64,000 bases of DNA, taken from an uncultured Gemmatimonadaceae bacterium (GTDB taxonomy: Bacteria; Gemmatimonadota; Gemmatimonadetes; Gemmatimonadales; Gemmatimonadaceae). The stretch covers positions 1,568,001 to 1,632,000 of the forward strand of contig OY970320.1 in NCBI GenBank assembly GCA_963716745.1. The letters are read 5' to 3'. The notes below the pieces were generated by a model. The model did no database searches. It had not been told where the DNA came from and worked only from the letters and a program-made list of their open reading frames with translations. The position numbers and the translations under genes were made by a program. Each line of letters starts with the position of its first letter. The first letter of the stretch is position 1. This document shows positions 1,061 through 52,140 of the stretch, piece by piece.

Positions 1061-1118
1061 CCCGTTCCGCTCTGGAGTGCCGAGACCTACATTCAACTCG
1101 TTCCCCATCGGAGGCTCC

Positions 1119-1665
1119 ATGCAGAGATCCCGTCTCCTCGCGATAGTCGCCATCGCCGCGTGCGCCGCTCGTCGCCGCGGGCCAAGCGGTCGTCGCCGAC
1201 ACCGGCTCCGTCGCCCCCAATTTCTCGGCGCCAGGCGCGAACATGGCCGGGCTGATCCCGTCGGTGAGTCTCGCCGCGTACAAGGGCAAGACCGTCGTGC
1301 TCGCCTTCTTCTACAAGGCGCGGACCAAGGGCTGAACGATCCAAATGGAGGCGTACCGTGATCAGTACGCCACGCTCTTCAACAACGGCAAGAATGTCGT
1401 CGTCCTCGGCATCAGCGTCGATGCCGACACCACGCTGCAAAGCTGGGCGCACGACGCCAAGTTCCCGATGACGTTCGTCAGCGACACCGGCCACGTGATC
1501 GGCTCCGCGTACGGCGTGTACAGCGAGAAGAACGCGATGGACTCGCGCGTCGTTTTCGTGATCGCGCCGAATGGCAAGATCACCTACAAAGCGCCCTTCA
1601 ATGTGATGTCGGCCGACGCCTACACGACGCTCGGCAACGAGGTGAAGAAGGCGTCTGGACCATAG
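1119..1665 (+). CDS. Exported peroxiredoxin (AhpC/TSA, BCP-like), probable selenoprotein; frameshift near 1161
   Basis: GGAGG before ATG 1119; signal-like N-terminus; VVLAFFYKARTKG-TGA(1333-1335)-TIQME in frame with ORF 1345..1665 (VLGISVD, RVVFVIAPNGKITY). Confidence 0.85.
1348..1377 (+). promoter_or_regulatory. Putative bacterial SECIS hairpin
   Basis: GGCGTAC(1350-56)/GTACGCC(1365-71) stem, loop CGTGATCA starting about 21 nt after the UGA. Confidence 0.65.
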
Positions 1666-1775
1666 TTCATCGTGCATCGCGCATCGTGCCTCGTGCATCG
1701 GCCATCGTGACCGCTTCGAGCGGTCGCGATGCCCGAATCCCCCGCCGAGGCACGATGCACGAGGCACGATGCGCG
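1666..1775. repeat. Heptamer (CATCGTG/CACGATG) inverted-repeat element
   Basis: catcgtgcatcgcgcatcgtgcctcgtgcatcgg ... gaggcacgatgcacgaggcacgatgcgcg. Confidence 0.8.
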
Positions 1776-4248: not shown

Positions 4249-5289
4249 AGCCGTCGAGCGTTCGCTGGCCCGCGGAGTGGGAGCCGCACACGGCGACGTG
4301 GTTGAGCTGGCCGCACAACAAAGAGGATTGGCCCGGAAAGTTCGCGCCGATCCCGTGGGTGTACGTCGAGATCGTGCGCGCGCTGCACACGCACGAGCGG
4401 GTGGAGATCCTGTGTCACAGCGCCGCGGTGAAGCGCAGCGCCGAGTCGGCGCTCAAGGCGCACGGTGTGGATCTCGCGCGGGTGGGCCGGCACATCGTGC
4501 CGAGCGACCGCGTGTGGACGCGCGACTCCGGCCCGACCGGAGTGCTCGACAGCGGCGGCGCGCTGCAGTGGGCCGGCTGGCGGTTCAACGGCTGGGCGAA
4601 GTACAAGAACTTCAAGGAGGATGTGAAAGTCGGCGCCGCGATCGCGAAGCTGAGCGGCGCGCCGCTCACCGCCGCCGTGCGCGATGACACGGGCAAGCCG
4701 CTCGTGCTCGAGGGCGGCGGCATCGAGACCGATGGTGCGGGCACGATGCTCGTCACCGAGGAGTGGCTGCTGTCCAAGGTGCAGGTGCGGAATCCCGGCA
4801 TGGACCGCGCAGGCGTACGAGCGCGCGTTCGCGCAGTGGCTGGGCATCAAGCGCACGGTCTGGCTGGGTGAAGGCTGCGTCGGCGACGACACGCACGGGC
4901 ATGTGGACGACATCGCGCGGTTCGCGGACGCGCACACCGTTGCGCTCGCGTACGAGCCCGACCCGCGCGACGAGAATCATGCGCGGAGCAAGGACAACGC
5001 ACGGAGGCTCGAACTCGCGGGGGGACTGCGCGTCGTGAAGCTGCCGTACCCGCGCGCGGTGGTCATGGATGGCCAGCGGCTGCCGGCGAGCTACGCGAAC
5101 TTCTACATCGCGAACGGAGTGGTGCTGGTGCCCACGTTCAACGATCCCAACGACCGCGCCGCGCTGAATATTCTCGCGCAACTATTCCCGGGGCGAGAGG
5201 TAGTCGGGATCCACGCGGGGGATTTAGTGTGGGGACTGGGGACGATCCACTGCCTGACCCAGCAGCAGCCGGCGGCTAAGCGCCGCTAA
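4245..5289 (+). CDS. aguA: Agmatine deiminase, frameshift near 4810
   Basis: WPAEWEPH, WTRDSGP, LEGGGI, DDTHGHVDD, ASYANF, GTIHCLTQQ; GTGA overlap with aguB. Confidence 0.9.
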
Positions 5290-8428: not shown

Positions 8429-9087
8429 GAAGCGCCGCCTTCCGCCGCGGGGCGGGGCTCTTCGAGCGCACGGCGCGCCATCGCGCCGGCCGGCGTGTCC
8501 GCGAATCGCTCGGCGAACCGGCGGAGTTCCGTGCGCGCCCGGCCCTCATCGTTCAACGCACCACGATACAGATCGATGAGCGCATTCGTCGCGCCGAACT
8601 CGTGCTGGCGGGTCGCGCCGGGGAGCTGCCTGATCTCACGGTACAATTCGGCGGCGCGCTCCGGTCTCTTGCCGCGCCCGGCAAACAGCGCCGCGGCGGC
8701 AAAGCGCACCGCCGCGTCGTCCGGCGATTCCCGGATCAACGCCTCGAAGCTCAGCACGGCGCCCTCGACGTCGCCGCGCATCTCGAGCGCGTGCTGGTAC
8801 GAGAACACGCGCTCGTACGGAGTGGTGGAGCCGGTGGGCATGTAGAGCATGCTCGTTACCGTCGCCGAGCGGCGCAGCATCGTGATGATGAACAGGGAGG
8901 CCCCCGCGCCGGTCGCCGCGCCGCCGGGCAGCGCCGCCAGGAAGAGCGGCACGAGGCCGATCCCCCATAGGTGATAGCCCTCGTACATGAGCAGCGGCAC
9001 CATGAGCACGGCGATCGCCGCGCCCGCCGCGATCGCCCGGCTTTCGTGGATGTCCCGGCCGGTTCGCGGCGGGATGGGCGCGGACAT
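8425..9087 (-). CDS. Membrane protein with helical TPR-like C-terminus
   Basis: Two hydrophobic segments then Ala/Arg-rich helices; stop overlaps CapA start. Confidence 0.6.
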   Translation of the reverse strand: MSAPIPPRTGRDIHESRAIAAGAAIAVLMVPLLMYEGYHLWGIGLVPLFLAALPGGAATGAGASLFIITMLRRSATVTSMLYMPTGSTTPYERVFSYQHALEMRGDVEGAVLSFEALIRESPDDAAVRFAAAALFAGRGKRPERAAELYREIRQLPGATRQHEFGATNALIDLYRGALNDEGRARTELRRFAERFADTPAGAMARRALEEPRPAAEGGAS

Positions 9088-9807: not shown

Positions 9808-10980
9808 ATGCGACAGCCACTTCCCCGATCATTCGCCGCCGCGCTCCTCGCGGGCATGCTCGCCCTCGCGCCGGCCGCGGCGGCGCAAGTCGTGCACGGC
9901 GATGTGACGGACGCCTCAACGCACGCGCCGATCCTCGGCGCGATCGTGATCGTGACCGACACGTCGGGCGCGCGCGTAGCCGGCGCGATCACGGACGATT
10001 CGGGCCGATTCTCGCTCCGCCTCGGCGCGGCCGGCAATTACCGTCTGCGCGCCGAACGCATCGGGTACGCCGCGAACAAATTCGATACGATCTCGATCGC
10101 GGCGGGTGCGTCGCTGATCGCGCACCTGAGCGCGACATCCGTCGCGGTGATACTGCCCACGGTGTTCGTGAGCGCCGAGTCGCGCTGCGTGATCCGGCCG
10201 ACGGAAGGCGCCGAGACGGCCATCGTATGGGAGGAGGCGCGGAAGGCGCTGGATGCGACCGAGATCGCGATCGATGGGAAAACTGTGTTCGCGGTGCGAA
10301 AGCGCTATACGCGGGATCTCGACGGCACGAGCCTCAGCATTCGCAAAGAGCAGACGCTCGTCGATTCCGTGATGCTCGAGCATCCGTGGCAAACGGCGGT
10401 GTCGCCGGAAGACCTCGCGCGCCACGGCTACCGCGTGATGTACGCCGGCGCGCCACTGCCCGGATTCCTGCAGCCCGGCGACTCGGTGCTCGCCGTGCCC
10501 GACGCGGATGTGCTGCTCTCCGACGCGTTCGCGCGCACGCATTGTTTCCGGGTGCGGCACGATTCCACCGACGACGAGCATCCCGGGCTCATCGGGCTCA
10601 TGTTCACTCCGGTGATCAAGCGGAGCGCGCCGGATGTGACCGGAACGCTCTGGCTCGACTCGGCCACGGCGCATCTGCGCTATATGGAGTTCCGCCATAC
10701 GAACATGTTCGCCGAGGTATCGCCGCGCCGCTACGGTGGACGCATGGACTTCGAGTTGCTGCCGGGCGGCCTCTGGGTCGTACGCCGCTGGACGGTTCGT
10801 CTTCCCGTGCTCACGACGGCGAGCACGAACGCCGCCGGCATGGGTGACGCGCGGTACTTGACCGGCGGCCGCCACATCGCGTTCTACCATGATGATGGCG
10901 GAGAGTTATTGAGCGCGACGGTCATCAAGTCGCCGGCCGCGGCCGCGCCGATCCCGAAGCCTCCCTCCGCAACGCCGTGA
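9808..10980 (+). CDS. Secreted carboxypeptidase-regulatory-like domain protein
   Basis: Signal peptide; VHGDVTD..THAPILGAIV...TDDSGRF...YRLRAERIGY. Confidence 0.75.
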   Translation: MRQPLPRSFAAALLAGMLALAPAAAAQVVHGDVTDASTHAPILGAIVIVTDTSGARVAGAITDDSGRFSLRLGAAGNYRLRAERIGYAANKFDTISIAAGASLIAHLSATSVAVILPTVFVSAESRCVIRPTEGAETAIVWEEARKALDATEIAIDGKTVFAVRKRYTRDLDGTSLSIRKEQTLVDSVMLEHPWQTAVSPEDLARHGYRVMYAGAPLPGFLQPGDSVLAVPDADVLLSDAFARTHCFRVRHDSTDDEHPGLIGLMFTPVIKRSAPDVTGTLWLDSATAHLRYMEFRHTNMFAEVSPRRYGGRMDFELLPGGLWVVRRWTVRLPVLTTASTNAAGMGDARYLTGGRHIAFYHDDGGELLSATVIKSPAAAAPIPKPPSATP

Positions 10981-15748: not shown

Positions 15749-18892
<3,144 letters not shown>

Positions 18893-43066: not shown

Positions 43067-44033
43067 ATGTTCGACGATCTGCGCGCCGAAGACATCGCCG
43101 CCGCCGCGAAGCGCCTCGCGGGCGTGTGCGTGCGCACGCCGCTCCGGCGATCCGCGGAATTGTCGCGCCGCGCGGGCGGCGATGTATTCCTCAAGCTCGA
43201 GTGCGAGCAGATCACGGGGTCGTTCAAGCTGCGCGGCGCGTTCAACGCGATCGCGTCGCTCGCGCCTGACGTGCGCGCGCGCGGCGTGATCGCGAGCTCC
43301 GCCGGCAATCACGGACTGGGCGTCGCGTGGGCAGCGAAGCATCACGGCATTCCCGCCACAGTATTCGTGCCGCGCGCCGCGCCTCATGGTGAAGCGGCGC
43401 GGCATCGAAGCGCTCGGCGCCACCGTGGACGCCGAGTCGGCGGACTATGACGTGGCGATGACGCGGGCCAAAGCGCTCGCCGCTGAGCGGGATGTCATGT
43501 ACATAAACCCCTGCCTGGGCGACACGCTGATCGCGGGACAAGGGACGGTGGCGCTCGAGATCATGGAGGATCTGCCTGCGGTCGCGATGGTGGTCACGCC
43601 GGTAGGAGGAGCAGGGCTGCTCGCGGGCACGGGGAGTTGGCTGCGGCGGAGAGCGCCGCATGTGCGGATCGCGGGGGCGCAGAGCGTGAATACCGCGGCG
43701 ATGAGCCGCTCGCTCGCGGAGGGGGCGGTGACGCACATCGAGAGTGTGCCGACGTTGGCCGACGGACTCGCTGGGGATATAGACGAATTCGCGTTGGATA
43801 TTGGGCGGAAGGCGCTGGATGAACTCGCGGTGCTGGACGAGGCGGCGATCGCGCGCGCCATTGGGTGGCTCTCGCGAGAGGAAGGGTTGGTAGTAGAAGG
43901 AGCGGGGGCGGTGGGTGTTGCGGCGGTGCTCGAGGGGGCGCTGGGGCTCAAGTTCCCGGCGGTGGTCATCGTGTCGGGGCGGAATATCGACCCCGAAAAA
44001 CATGCGGCGGCAGTTGGTTCAAGAACGGCGTGA
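43067..44033 (+). CDS. Threonine/serine dehydratase (PLP), frameshift near 43383
   Basis: KLECEQITGSFKLRGA, SAGNHG, AGQGT, PVGGAGL, SGRNID. Confidence 0.88.
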
Positions 44034-44327
44034 GTACCGAGTCGTGCGTGTTCGACCACAGAGGGCGTGAGTACCGAGTCGTGCGTGTTGGACCACAGAC
44101 GGCGTGAGTACCGAGTCGTGCGTGTTGGACCACAGAGGGCGTGAGTACCTAGTCGTGCGTGTTGGACCACAGACAGCGTGAGTACCGAGTCGTGCGTCGG
44201 CGTTTTTGGGCGCACTCACGACTAACGGCGGTCGGGTTGCGACTCACGCAGTGCGTGGTCGAACACGCACGACTCGGTACTCACGCACCCTGTGGTCGAA
44301 CACGCACGACTCGGTACTCACGCCGTT
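44024..44327. repeat. 37-bp tandem and inverted repeat element (MITE/REP-like)
   Basis: Four full plus one partial direct unit (44027-44197), two inverted units (44255-44327); perfect 37-bp terminal inverted repeats. Confidence 0.92.
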
Positions 44328-44347
44328 ATTACTGAGTATCTTAGGTC

Positions 44348-48633: not shown

Positions 48634-50778
48634 TTACCGGCTCAGCTTCATGCTCACGATGAACGCGCGCGGCTGCGCGGGCGTGTAAAAGCGCTCCACT
48701 TCATCGGAGGGCGGACCGCCGGGCGGCCCAACCGGATTGTCCGCGTACGTGGCGAAGCTCGAGAACTTGTGATCGAACAGGTTCTGCACAGTGGCGGTGA
48801 GGGCGATGTGGTCGCGCGCGTACGTCGCGCGCAGGCGCCACACGGCGTAGCCGGCGAGCGGCGGCTCGACGTTCGCGTCGTCGCCGCGCACGAACTGCGT
48901 GCTCACGGCGTTCATGCCGATCTCACCGTCGATCGTGCCCGAGCCCACGACTTCCGTGGCGCCGAACGCGAACGTCACGCGGTCGTGCGGCGAGAGCGGG
49001 AACACATCTCCGGGATGCACCGAGTCGGGCACCGGCAGCTGCGATGACAGCAGCACGGTGCTCTGATACGTCGCGTTCAAGTACGTGTACGATGCGCTCG
49101 CGCGCATCCCATGCGGCAGCATGAGCGTGCCGCTCAGTTCCGCGCCGGCACGGCGCGTGTGCGGGATGTTCTGGAAGTAGCCCTGCGTGTTGGTGCTCGC
49201 GACGAACACGATCTCGTCGTGCACATCGCTCCAGAAGAGCGACGCCTCGAGCGTGCTGCCGCCTTTCGGCGACCAGTCGGCGCCGACCTCATAACTCGCG
49301 AGCGTCACCGGCTGGAGCGGCGGGTCGCTGCCGAGCGCGTACGGGAGTGGACACGGCGCGTCAGGACTCGCGCAGCCGAGCTCCACCGGTGCGGGCGCAC
49401 GGAACCCGCCGCTCACCACGGCGTAGCCCCGCCACGCCGGGTTGAATTCGTACGTGGCGCCGAAGCGCGGAGAGAGATGCGTGAACACGCTCGTCGCGCT
49501 GTTGGCGCTGTCGTAGCGATCCTCGAACGGCACGCGCACCCAGTCGAATCGCGCCGCCGCGGTGAGCGAGAGCGCGGGTCGTGAGCGAGAGCACGCCCTG
49601 CGCGAAGACGCCGGCATCCTGCTCGGGCACGAACACGTCCGCGCACAATCCGTTGGCGTTGCATTCCGGCGGGAGATGCACGGATGTGTCGGCCGTGAGA
49701 CGCGCGTAGATCGATTCGCTCACGTCGTTCCGCGCAAGCTCGATGCCGACGGTGAACGCGAACGGGCGCGACCACGCGGAGAGCGGCGCGCTCCACTCGG
49801 TGGTGAGTCCGTACGATTGGTTCACGAGGAACGCGTCGGAGCTGGGCGCGTCCACGTTCACATTGAACTGTTCCGACGCGTTGTGGCGATAGAAGATCGC
49901 GGCGCGCAGCTGGCCGGCGCCCAGCGTGCGCTCGCCGCGGAGCGCGAGATGCCAGAGTTCGGGAGCGAAGAAATCGCCGCCGGTGTAGTTGAGTTTCGGA
50001 TTCACCGCGAGCCAGCTCGCAGGGAGCGAACCCGGCTCGGCGATGCTGTCGTGCGCGTACATCACCGTGAGCGCAATGTCGCTCGAGTCGCGCTTGCGGC
50101 CGAGGTTGAGGAAGATCGACCGCTCGGTGAGTCCGCCTTGTTCGCGCCAGCCAGACTCGTTGAAGAAGTTCGCGGAGAGGAAACCGTCGAAGGCGCCGCT
50201 CTTGCCGCCGGCGTTCACCGTCGCGTTGAACAGGCCGAAGGATCCGCCGCTCACATCGCCCTCGAGCACCGGCACCGTCTCGCCGCGCTGCGTGAAAAGC
50301 ACGAGCGCGCCGGCCAGCGTGTTCTTGCCGTAGAGCGTGGCCGGGCCGCGCACGAGCTGGCCGCGCGAGACGGCGTCCATCGGCAGGAGATCGAAGTTCA
50401 CTTCCTGCGCGTCGGGCTCGTTCACGCGCACGCCATCGAGGAACACCGACACGCCCTGCGGCACGCCGACCACTGGCGAGAGGTTGAACCCGCGGATCTC
50501 GAGCGTAGGCTGCGCGGGCGTGCCTTGATCGTCGAACACGCTCACGCCGGGGAGCTTCGCGAGCGCGGCGGCGGCGCTCGCGGCGGCGGGCGCGAGATCG
50601 TGCACGTTCACCTTGTCCACCTGCGCGGGCACGCTCTCATCCGCATCGCTCAGCCGCGTGCTCACGACGACCGGCACGAGATGCTGCACGCGCGCGGAAT
50701 CCTTCTTGGTGGAATCGGAACGAATCGTATCCTTCGCCTGGGCATCGGCTCGCTGGCGAAAACGATGAGCGCGAGCAT
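48634..50778 (-). CDS. TonB-dependent receptor (frameshifts near 49575 and 50750; start uncertain)
   Basis: Plug IRGF...VFLDGVRVN...RGPATLYG; barrel strands; VQNLFD...PRAF. Confidence 0.85.
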
Positions 50779-50876
50779 TCGCGATTCGCGCGAGTCGAAG
50801 CGTGCATCGTGCGAGCGTGCATCGTGCTCGGCGCCGCTCGTCTGTCGCGGCGCGATGCACGATGCACGATGCACGG

Positions 50877-52140
50877 CTAGCGCGTCCCGCCGGCTATGCG
50901 ACTCCACACCCTCGATGAGCCGCTCCACCTCCTCCATGTTCGTGTAGCACGCGCAACCGGCGCGCACGAGGCCGTCGGGCGCCTGGCCGAGCCGTTCGAC
51001 GATGGTGGTCGCGTAGAAATCCCCGTTCGACACGTAGACACCGAGCCGCGCGAGCGCGATCGCGACATCGGTGGTCGGAACGCCGGCAACGGTGAACACG
51101 ATCGTGGGCGTGCGGCGCTCCCGCGGCGGCGGCCCGAAGCGTCGCACGCCCTTGATCGCGCCGAGGCCCTCCCAGATGCGATGGAACAGCTCGTCGCCGC
51201 GCGTGTGCAGCTCGCCGAACGCCGCCGCCAGCCGCGCGCGCCGGTGCGCGCCGCCGTCGGGCGCGAGGGACGCGAGGAAATCCACCGCGGCCCCCGCCCC
51301 GACGATCCCTTCGTGGTTCTGCGTGCCGGTCTCGAGGCGCTCGGGGGCGGTGTCGGGTGCGGGGATGAGCTTCGGCACGTCGAGCGCGCTCAGCCGCTCG
51401 TGCTTGCCGTACAGGATGCCAATGTGGGGTCCGTAGAACTTGTACGCGGAGCACGCAAGGAAATCGCAGTCGAGCGCGCGGACATCCACGAGCGCGTGCG
51501 GCGCGTAGTGCACGGCGTCCACGAACACGACGGTGCCGGGCGCTGCGCCGCGCGCGAGACGCGCAGCGCGCGCGACGTCGGTGATGGTGCCGAGCGCGTT
51601 GGATCCGGCGCCGATCGCGAGCACGCGTGTGCGCGCGGAGAGTTGGCGTTCGAAGTCCTTCCAGTCGAGTTGGCCCGTGGCAGGATCCATCTTCGCGACG
51701 CGCACCACCGCACCGCGCTCGCGCTCGAGTGCGCGCCACGGCGCGATGTTGGCGTGATGGTCCAGCTCGGTGACCACGATCTCGTCGCCCGCCTCGAGCT
51801 CGCGGCCGAGCGCGCGCGCCAGATGGAAGGTGATCGTCGTCATGTTGAGGCCGAACGCGATCTCGTTGGGCGACGCGTTCAAGAAATCGGCCACCGCGAC
51901 GCGCGCGGCCTGGATCATCTCGTCGGTCTCGGCGCTCGTGGGATAGGCCCAGTGCGTGTTCGCGTTGTGATGGTACAGGTAGTCCGTCATCGCGTCGGCC
52001 ACTGCGCGCGGCACCTGCGTGCCGCCCGGCCCGTCGAAGAAAGCGACGGGGCGCGATCCCTCGCGCCGCTGCAGCGCCGGGAACTGCGCACGGATCGCAT
52101 CCGTGGACGTGACGCGAGAGGCCGACAATATCGCACTCAT
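50877..52140 (-). CDS. Cysteine desulfurase-like class V aminotransferase (indel near C-terminus)
   Basis: FDGPGGTQVP, DHHANIAPW, VDAVHYAPH, CSAYKFYGPH, ETGT. Confidence 0.9.

Follow-up and report, generated by a model that had tools for sequence, protein, structure and literature searches.

A TGA codon in place of the peroxidatic Cys codon in a gene for a predicted exported peroxiredoxin of Gemmatimonadaceae

Layout of the gene and the in-frame TGA

The DNA analyzed here, called the window throughout, comprises 64,000 nucleotides of contig OY970320.1 (positions 1,568,001 to 1,632,000) in assembly GCA_963716745.1, which stems from an uncultured Gemmatimonadaceae bacterium. Near its beginning, at 1119-1665 on the plus strand, lies a gene in which an in-frame TGA codon is flanked on either side by peroxiredoxin-coding sequence. 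This gene, the proposed decoding of its TGA as selenocysteine (Sec), and the predicted export of its product are the subject of the present analysis. The following features were assigned to the gene and its immediate surroundings, and the evidence is given in brackets:

1110..1114, plus strand: Shine-Dalgarno-like GGAGG, 4 nt 5' of the ATG at 1119 (direct reading of the sequence)
1119..1160, plus strand: start codon and first part of a signal-like peptide, a basic n-region followed by a hydrophobic run, frame 0 (translation)
1159..1163, plus strand: site of an extra base, which shifts the frame between signal peptide and enzyme body (MAFFT, BLAST)
1162..1332, plus strand: remainder of the signal peptide, followed by the first third of the mature peroxiredoxin, frame 1, open from 1147 (translation, dN/dS)
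1312..1314, plus strand: Tyr codon in the Pro column of the PxxxTxxC motif (alignment)
1324..1326, plus strand: Thr codon of the TxxU motif, invariant in 79/79 TGA sequences
1333..1335, plus strand: in-frame TGA, probably read as selenocysteine, the peroxidatic residue (alignment to Cys homologues and to 2ywn_A)
1336..1662, plus strand: C-terminal two thirds of the peroxiredoxin, of which gene finders give only a 106-aa protein from the ATG at 1345 (open reading frame list, Pfam)
1342..1374, plus strand: block with nearly frozen synonymous sites, codons +3 to +13 past the TGA, proposed selenocysteine insertion sequence (SECIS) (wobble entropy, synonymous differences)
1350..1371, plus strand: hairpin with a stem of 7 bp (1350-1356/1365-1371) and an 8-nt, GU-containing loop (1357-1364) (single-sequence fold, RNAalifold)
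1546..1548, plus strand: invariant Arg codon in the active-site Arg column of peroxiredoxins, with a presumed catalytic role (alignment with 2ywn_A)
1663..1665, plus strand: TAG stop codon of the gene (sequence, translation)
1661..1775, plus strand: nested inverted repeats I2-I4 3' of the stop, which may form a terminator hairpin (81-92% complementarity between arms of 26-30 nt)

Relatives were retrieved from species-representative genomes of GTDB with an alignment of the window protein and 20 fragment homologues as query, and the best 80 of 555 were kept. All of them are metagenome-assembled genomes of Gemmatimonadota, and the identities range from 52 to 98%. Counts of database proteins refer to the 120 matches listed.

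When the TGA is read through, the translation matches the Pfam family AhpC-TSA (PF00578) with an E-value of 2e-27 and 96 bits (cut-off 26), and the match extends over residues 20-147 and covers profile positions 2-123 of 124. The open reading frame (ORF) 1345-1665, which encodes 106 aa, reaches only 1.5e-14 on its own and covers positions 46-123. The TGA at 1333-1335 falls into the column of the peroxidatic Cys of Cys homologues, of archaeal BCP structures and of AhpE of Mycobacterium tuberculosis. Together with the Thr codon at 1324-1326 it lines up with the T and the C of the Cys homologues and of 2ywn_A. The initial annotation had placed the TGA at the peroxidatic Cys of a PxxxTxxC motif and had noted that the ORF list begins only behind it and that no Cys follows; all of this was borne out, the listed ORF being 1345-1665 and the mature part being devoid of any other Cys. 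The pairing of TGA with Cys at this column, which had been named as a check, was also found in the 80 related loci, 78 of which have TGA and two TGC (L021 and L043).

The protein database gives a corresponding picture. Among the matches listed, 20 clusters of 103-106 aa begin at the Met directly past the TGA, and 95 are full-length homologues with Cys. Five further full-length proteins have another residue in the Sec column, namely W (P0014, P0048 and P0069) or L (P0022 and P0053). Such entries may have arisen through translation of TGA with a different genetic code, or from a point mutation that altered a single base of TGA.

The part upstream of the TGA bears the marks of a translated sequence. 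Its dN/dS values (rates of nonsynonymous over synonymous substitution) are 0.021/0.194 in comparison with L002 and 0.043/0.402 in comparison with L003, i.e., a ratio of about 0.1, and in codons -16 to -1 the residues are invariant and the wobble positions variable. Conserved residues with varying wobble positions and the low ratio argue that the upstream part is translated in the frame of the TGA. A global reassignment of the codon does not apply, because TGA is the commonest stop codon in the window and closes 19 of the 32 long ORFs. Two other in-frame TGA candidates were found in the window, both of which are antisense to long ORFs, and thus only the peroxiredoxin site is credible. A second Cys in the mature part is absent from all 79 Sec forms and all 97 Cys forms, and therefore the enzyme would be a one-Sec enzyme (1-Cys type) that needs an external reductant.

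The beginning of the gene is less regular. The signal-like peptide, together with its ATG at 1119, is read in frame 0 (1119 mod 3 = 0), and frame 1 holds the TGA and the body of the enzyme. The enzyme frame contains a TAG at 1144-1146, and the earliest ATG, GTG or TTG thereafter is found at 1243. The view that 1119-1665 forms a single frame thus did not hold for the signal peptide, but it did for the enzyme, as the frame of the TGA encodes peroxiredoxin on both sides. Compared to L002 and L003, the window has one surplus base at about 1161 (MAFFT alignment, and a BLAST gap versus L002), and in both of these loci start codon, signal peptide and enzyme are all in one frame. L001, the nearest relative of the window, is likewise discontinuous in the signal-peptide region.

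Similar irregularities occur elsewhere in the window. Insertions of one base at 2209, 4811 and 5498 are found in the window and in none of L001, L002 and L003, and another one at 8961 was noted in the comparison with L002 only. The insertion at 2209 splits a DUF4147/MOFRL (glycerate kinase-like) gene, which is one ORF of 484 aa in L002, and the insertion at 4811 splits an agmatine deiminase gene, which is one ORF of 350 aa in L002. Further genes seem to be split across frames, e.g., that of a TonB-dependent receptor at 48637-50893. Errors of this type in the window are insertions and not substitutions, and the pattern suggests an error-prone assembly. Because similar window-only insertions break two neighboring genes, the extra base at about 1161 is considered a likely assembly error and not biology.

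In L001, the region 9932-10026, which comprises the 5' leader and the signal-peptide region, has about ten single-base gaps within approximately 100 nt relative to the window; this cluster looks like a local sequencing error of that assembly. A lipoprotein reading of the frame-0 peptide, with a Cys following the hydrophobic run, was considered and rejected, since the Cys codon arises from the extra base and frame 0 continues as Arg-rich out-of-frame text without a Pfam match.

The proposed recoding hairpin and a second predicted selenoprotein

Downstream of the TGA the constraint on the nucleotide sequence goes far beyond that on the protein. The hairpin begins 14 nt past the TGA, and G residues at +23 and +25 from the UGA lie within its loop. 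It is enclosed by the 30-nt sequence CAAATGGAGGCGTACCGTGATCAGTACGCC (1342-1371), which is nearly nucleotide-invariant across the 79 TGA sequences, although these are only 52-65% identical as proteins. The wobble entropy in the block is 0-0.29 bits, compared to 0.6-1.8 bits at flanking codons for invariant residues. Synonymous differences per codon and pair amount to 0.020 in codons +3 to +13, versus 0.46 upstream and 0.43 downstream, which is an approximately 20-fold reduction. Even rare codons are fixed, i.e., CGT in 78, GAT in 78 and CAA in 75 of the 79 sequences. That the block codons are not enforced by the retrieval pattern follows from the Cys locus L043, in which four of its wobble sites differ from the Sec forms.

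The RNAalifold consensus of the 79 sequences includes one change that retains pairing: in L044 the outermost pair is C-G instead of G-C, at the cost of a Glu-to-Asp exchange. In L057 the outermost pair of the stem is broken. Bacterial SECIS elements have been described as hairpins just past the UGA, with a stem of 6-8 bp and a loop in which a G about 20 nt from the UGA is conserved (PMC4605307). The hairpin of the window matches this description in shape and place, and binding by SelB is presumed. The argument for a SECIS is built on the frozen synonymous sites and not on the stability of the hairpin. Judged from the sequences, the frozen block together with the hairpin is the signature of a bacterial SECIS element.

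At L021 10154-10219, where TGC is combined with Pro, the hairpin is still in place, as are CGT and GAT, the rare codons found in the Sec forms; L021 may be a recent reversion from Sec to Cys.

Decoding of UGA as Sec in this lineage is also indicated by another gene. Three of the related loci contain a gene for the alpha subunit of formate dehydrogenase in which an in-frame TGA occupies the canonical Sec site:

L049 16096-18063, minus strand: formate dehydrogenase alpha gene, TGA at the Sec site
L053 approximately 15856-17826, minus strand: formate dehydrogenase alpha gene, TGA at the Sec site
L055 approximately 15872-17905, minus strand: formate dehydrogenase alpha gene, TGA at the Sec site

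With read-through, this enzyme matches TIGR01591 with 685 bits (cut-off 666) and aligns with solved FdhF-type enzymes. A strong hairpin, the loop of which opens with GU, follows 3' of its TGA, and in all three loci the gene lies about 7.5 kb from the gene of the Sec-peroxiredoxin. The formate dehydrogenase is thus a second predicted selenoprotein in these genomes, and it provides independent, though indirect, support for Sec decoding in the lineage.

Active-site pocket, predicted export and comparison with known peroxiredoxins

In the window a Tyr codon (1312-1314) takes the place of the Pro codon of PxxxTxxC, as had been remarked in the initial annotation. The departure from Pro extends to the whole Sec group: in the 79 Sec forms this column holds Phe (44), Tyr (33) or Ile (2) and never Pro, and 96 of the 97 Cys forms have Pro, the exception being P0061 with Tyr. 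The invariant Arg column, on the other hand, is occupied as in other peroxiredoxins, and the codon at 1546-1548 aligns with the Arg of 2ywn_A.

The distribution of Sec and Cys was followed on trees built from about 160 columns, from which the Sec/Cys and the Pro columns had been omitted. The state changes 8 times on these trees, and at least four changes are forced by well-supported branches. In independent contrasts Pro/non-Pro always switches together with Cys/Sec. In a sign test, the FastTree tree yields 6 pairs (p about 0.03), and the IQ-TREE quick tree yields 4 pairs (p 0.125). The link between Sec and the absence of Pro is perfect in the counts, but the phylogenetic sign test is underpowered.

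Export was predicted with a crude rule that demands an in-frame start, a basic residue and a hydrophobic 11-mer. By this rule a signal-like N-terminus is continuous with the enzyme in 78 of 81 sequences, the exceptions being the window, L001 and L017. The earlier proposal of an exported enzyme is consequently supported by the relatives, and it is not supported by the window sequence as it stands, in which one extra base puts the signal-like N-terminus and the mature protein into different frames.

The neighborhood of the gene in the relatives contains candidates for a reductant. In 27 of the 81 sequences, all of them Sec forms, a gene for a TlpA/ResA-like thioredoxin-fold protein follows directly after the peroxiredoxin gene in convergent orientation, and in 25 of the 81 ccdA (DsbD_TM) is next. 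In the TlpA-like protein a WCPNC motif is found, as well as a hydrophobic segment at the N-terminus. The arrangement, which characterizes one large subgroup, is exemplified by L023 (neighbor analysis):

L023 10613-11131, minus strand: TlpA-like gene
L023 11131-11928, minus strand: ccdA

The pair is absent from the 64 kb of the window. This neighborhood fits a location in the cell envelope, and it suggests that electrons may pass from cytoplasmic thioredoxin to CcdA, then to the TlpA-like protein and finally to the peroxiredoxin.

Taken together, the following mode of action is proposed. SelB together with Sec-tRNA(Sec) would bind the hairpin at 1350-1371, and Sec would be inserted at the UGA at 1333. 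The protein would then be exported via the Sec pathway, and the signal peptide would be cleaved off. The selenolate would reduce peroxide and be converted to a selenenic acid. Regeneration would require a thiol partner from outside, as the enzyme lacks a resolving Cys, and candidates are the membrane electron carrier CcdA and a periplasmic thioredoxin of the TlpA-like kind, the genes of which are neighbors of the peroxiredoxin gene in roughly one third of the relatives but not in the window.

Peroxiredoxins of the TxxU type with Sec are already known. "Prx, COG1225 (Bcp), TxxU" appears among the bacterial selenoprotein families in PMC9312934, and PMC1794560 describes Sec-peroxiredoxins with a T/SxxU/C site, with 12 Sec members and 5 events of Cys-to-Sec conversion. 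The present proteins share with this family the AhpC/TSA fold, the peroxidatic Sec in TxxU, the existence of Cys homologues and the repeated switching between Sec and Cys. In contrast to the family as it has been described, the gene of the window stems from Gemmatimonadota, encodes a predicted signal peptide and belongs to a group with Phe, Tyr or Ile instead of Pro. In the literature searched, no paper dealt with selenoproteins or tRNA-Sec in Gemmatimonadetes/Gemmatimonadota, none with an exported bacterial Sec-peroxiredoxin, and none joined PxxxTxxC with selenocysteine. Within that literature the type of enzyme is known, and what is undescribed is its occurrence in this lineage, its predicted signal peptide and the loss of Pro that goes with Sec.

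Another peroxiredoxin with a peroxidatic Sec is PrxU of Eubacterium acidaminophilum, which is cited as reference 58 in PMC9312934. The window protein is not its equivalog, as it scores 65.3 bits with the NCBIfam model NF040737, the cut-off of which is 270. PrxU is a cytoplasmic protein of a Gram-positive anaerobe. The best NCBIfam match is NF006960, the equivalog model of the thioredoxin-dependent thiol peroxidase Bcp, and also in this case the score (72.1 bits) stays below the cut-off (140).

The best matches among solved structures are those of BCP/PrxQ (2ywn, 3hjp and 2cx3) and AhpE (Rv2238c, 1xxu and 4x0x), with E-values of 5.7e-15 to 6e-9. The active-site columns with Thr, Cys (here Sec) and Arg are aligned. 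Unlike the window protein, these enzymes use Cys, have retained Pro and lack a signal peptide, and the identity is low. AhpE is a peroxiredoxin without a resolving Cys, and in this respect the window enzyme resembles it.

Closer relatives are the Cys orthologues of Gemmatimonadaceae (e.g., P0004, P0012, P0065, L021 and L043), which are 47-59% identical, have the same length and share the signal peptide as well as the conserved peptide behind the active site. They differ in that TGC is combined with Pro (96/97), whereas TGA is combined with Phe, Tyr or Ile (79/79). Some peroxiredoxins of the cell envelope, e.g., PprX of Caulobacter, are supplied with electrons by membrane carriers of the DsbD/CcdA/ScsB type. 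The resemblance of the present system to these lies in the predicted export of the peroxiredoxin and in the adjacent ccdA (25/81) and TlpA-like thioredoxin gene (27/81). A single operon is not formed, because the TlpA-like and ccdA genes are convergent to the peroxiredoxin gene.

Weighing of the explanations and further features of the region

The explanation that we favor, with a probability of about 0.85, is that 1119-1665 encodes a peroxiredoxin of the BCP/PrxQ-AhpE type with one selenocysteine, which is secreted (to the periplasm), and that the gene belongs to a large group of such genes in Gemmatimonadaceae. The recoding of UGA as Sec, already put forward in the initial annotation, has gained strong support from the conserved TGA, the purifying selection upstream of it, the SECIS-like hairpin and the pairing of Sec with Cys. 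From the comparison of sequences, the TGA at 1333 is not an error, and the gene is taken to encode a real selenoprotein.

Several observations weigh against this explanation. In the sequence as it stands the gene is broken near 1161, and export is deduced from a crude hydrophobicity rule. The fraction of TGA (78/80) comes from the loci most similar to the window protein, and thus is not an unbiased prevalence. The hairpin has a z-score of only -1.1, and 26 of 200 shuffled sequences fold equally well. No Rfam family fits it: a gathering search of the window retrieved two tRNAs and nothing else, and a permissive search of 1280-1450 gave chance-level matches without any SECIS family. Since the block is nearly invariant, it offers a single compensatory change. 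The peptide it encodes is symmetric at its ends (Ala-Tyr ... Tyr-Ala), a feature that is conserved in the Cys forms too and that predisposes the block to form a hairpin. The hairpin is retained in the Cys locus L021, and the DNA of Cys forms is represented by two loci (L021 and L043).

Furthermore, the search for selA, selB, selD and tRNA-Sec that had been suggested with the initial annotation was negative within the 1.26 Mb covered by the window and the 80 loci. ARAGORN predicted no tRNA-Sec in this DNA, Pfam revealed no SelA, SelB or SelD among the 42 ORFs of the window, and tblastn with the E. coli proteins SelA, SelB and SelD yielded nothing at an E-value of 1e-3 in the 1,263,647 bases. 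This absence says little, because the DNA searched is a small part of each genome, in the case of the source genome 64 kb.

The most serious competitor is a recent pseudogene in this particular genome. In that case the extra base at about 1161 would be real and no exported full-length enzyme would be made, while the family would still consist of genuine selenoproteins. It would account for the TAG at 1144-1146 and the late first start codon at 1243, the use of which would remove the signal peptide as well as a conserved N-terminal motif, and the discontinuity in the nearest relative L001 would also agree with it. Nevertheless, decay is improbable, because the mature peroxiredoxin does not differ from that of L001 (100% identity) and is otherwise undamaged, the window-only insertions at 2209, 4811 and 5498, which break or alter genes undamaged in L002, fit an assembly error better than a joint decay of three adjacent genes, and the many single-base gaps of L001 in the same 60 nt resemble sequencing errors.

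Read-through of the UGA at 1333 without Sec, in which the codon is decoded as Cys or Trp by a near-cognate tRNA or a suppressor tRNA with the aid of the hairpin, would agree with the lack of Sec machinery in the DNA searched and with the five full-length database proteins that have W (3) or L (2) in the column. It is very unlikely, as place and form of the hairpin fit the published description of the SelB-bound SECIS, and related genomes contain a formate dehydrogenase gene with TGA at the canonical Sec site. In addition, Trp and Leu are unable to serve as a peroxidatic residue, and the strict link between TGA and the loss of Pro implies a residue that is chemically unlike Cys.

The TGA could also be a true stop codon, which separates a short N-terminal peptide from a protein of 106 aa that starts at the ATG at 1345, and a form of 103-106 aa is indeed predicted in 20 database clusters. 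This has next to no probability, because the 106-aa piece corresponds to AhpC-TSA positions 46-123 and lacks the catalytic motif, both parts form one frame under purifying selection in 79 sequences, and the same architecture with Cys is a single protein in 97 homologues. Finally, a sequencing error for TGC or TGT might be suspected, since probable single-base errors do occur in the window. Its probability is negligible in view of the TGA in 78 of 80 independent assemblies and of the fact that the errors of the window are insertions and not substitutions.

If the gene is a Sec-peroxiredoxin gene, it has consequences for annotation and for ecology. Gene finders cut the gene at the TGA, and 20 database clusters comprise the C-terminal fragment only. 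Together with the lack of an NCBIfam model that reaches its cut-off, the fragment entries indicate that an abundant antioxidant enzyme of the cell envelope in a major soil phylum would be systematically mis-annotated. In addition, the gene points to selenium-dependent defense against peroxide in mostly aerobic soil bacteria. According to a survey from 2006, Sec-peroxiredoxins occur mainly in anaerobes (PMC1794560).

The coupling of Sec with the loss of Pro (79/79 in the Sec forms versus 1/97 in the Cys forms, with at least four well-supported independent contrasts) is a natural experiment on what a pocket needs when selenium takes the place of sulfur. A farther-reaching view, somewhat less probable than its negation and thus put forward tentatively, is that the use of Sec is mechanistically tied to a rebuilt pocket. 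The enzyme would then be an [F/Y]xxxTxxU periplasmic selenoperoxidase, widespread in aerobic soil Gemmatimonadaceae and recycled by CcdA and TlpA-like proteins, and, as part of the same tentative view, each switch between Cys and Sec would be accompanied by one between Pro and an aromatic residue (Phe or Tyr). If this were true, Sec would be no simple substitute for Cys in the peroxiredoxin pocket, and a major soil phylum would rely on selenium for the peroxide defense of its envelope.

Three further features of the window were observed. Between the upstream dehydrogenase gene and the start of the peroxiredoxin gene lies a near-perfect palindrome of about 90 nt (968-1060, arms 976-1012 and 1015-1051). 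Its RNA would fold with -67 kcal/mol (z-score -17). It is AT-rich in a window with a GC content of 67%, and it contains sigma-70-like TTGACA/CATGAT boxes in mirror image on both strands. The palindrome is present once in the window, and its arm was found again only in L001 and L002, with a different center. Its role could be that of a terminator, an operator or a divergent promoter.

The nested repeats at 1661-1775, behind the peroxiredoxin gene, are built of short CATCGTG-like units, the number of which varies among the window, L001, L002 and L003; a simple scan did not call them a terminator. Lastly, the region 44024-44329 of the window has matches on both strands, in more than one register, to a non-syntenic repeat region of L002 (14147-14518), and it resembles a family of dispersed or tandem repeats.

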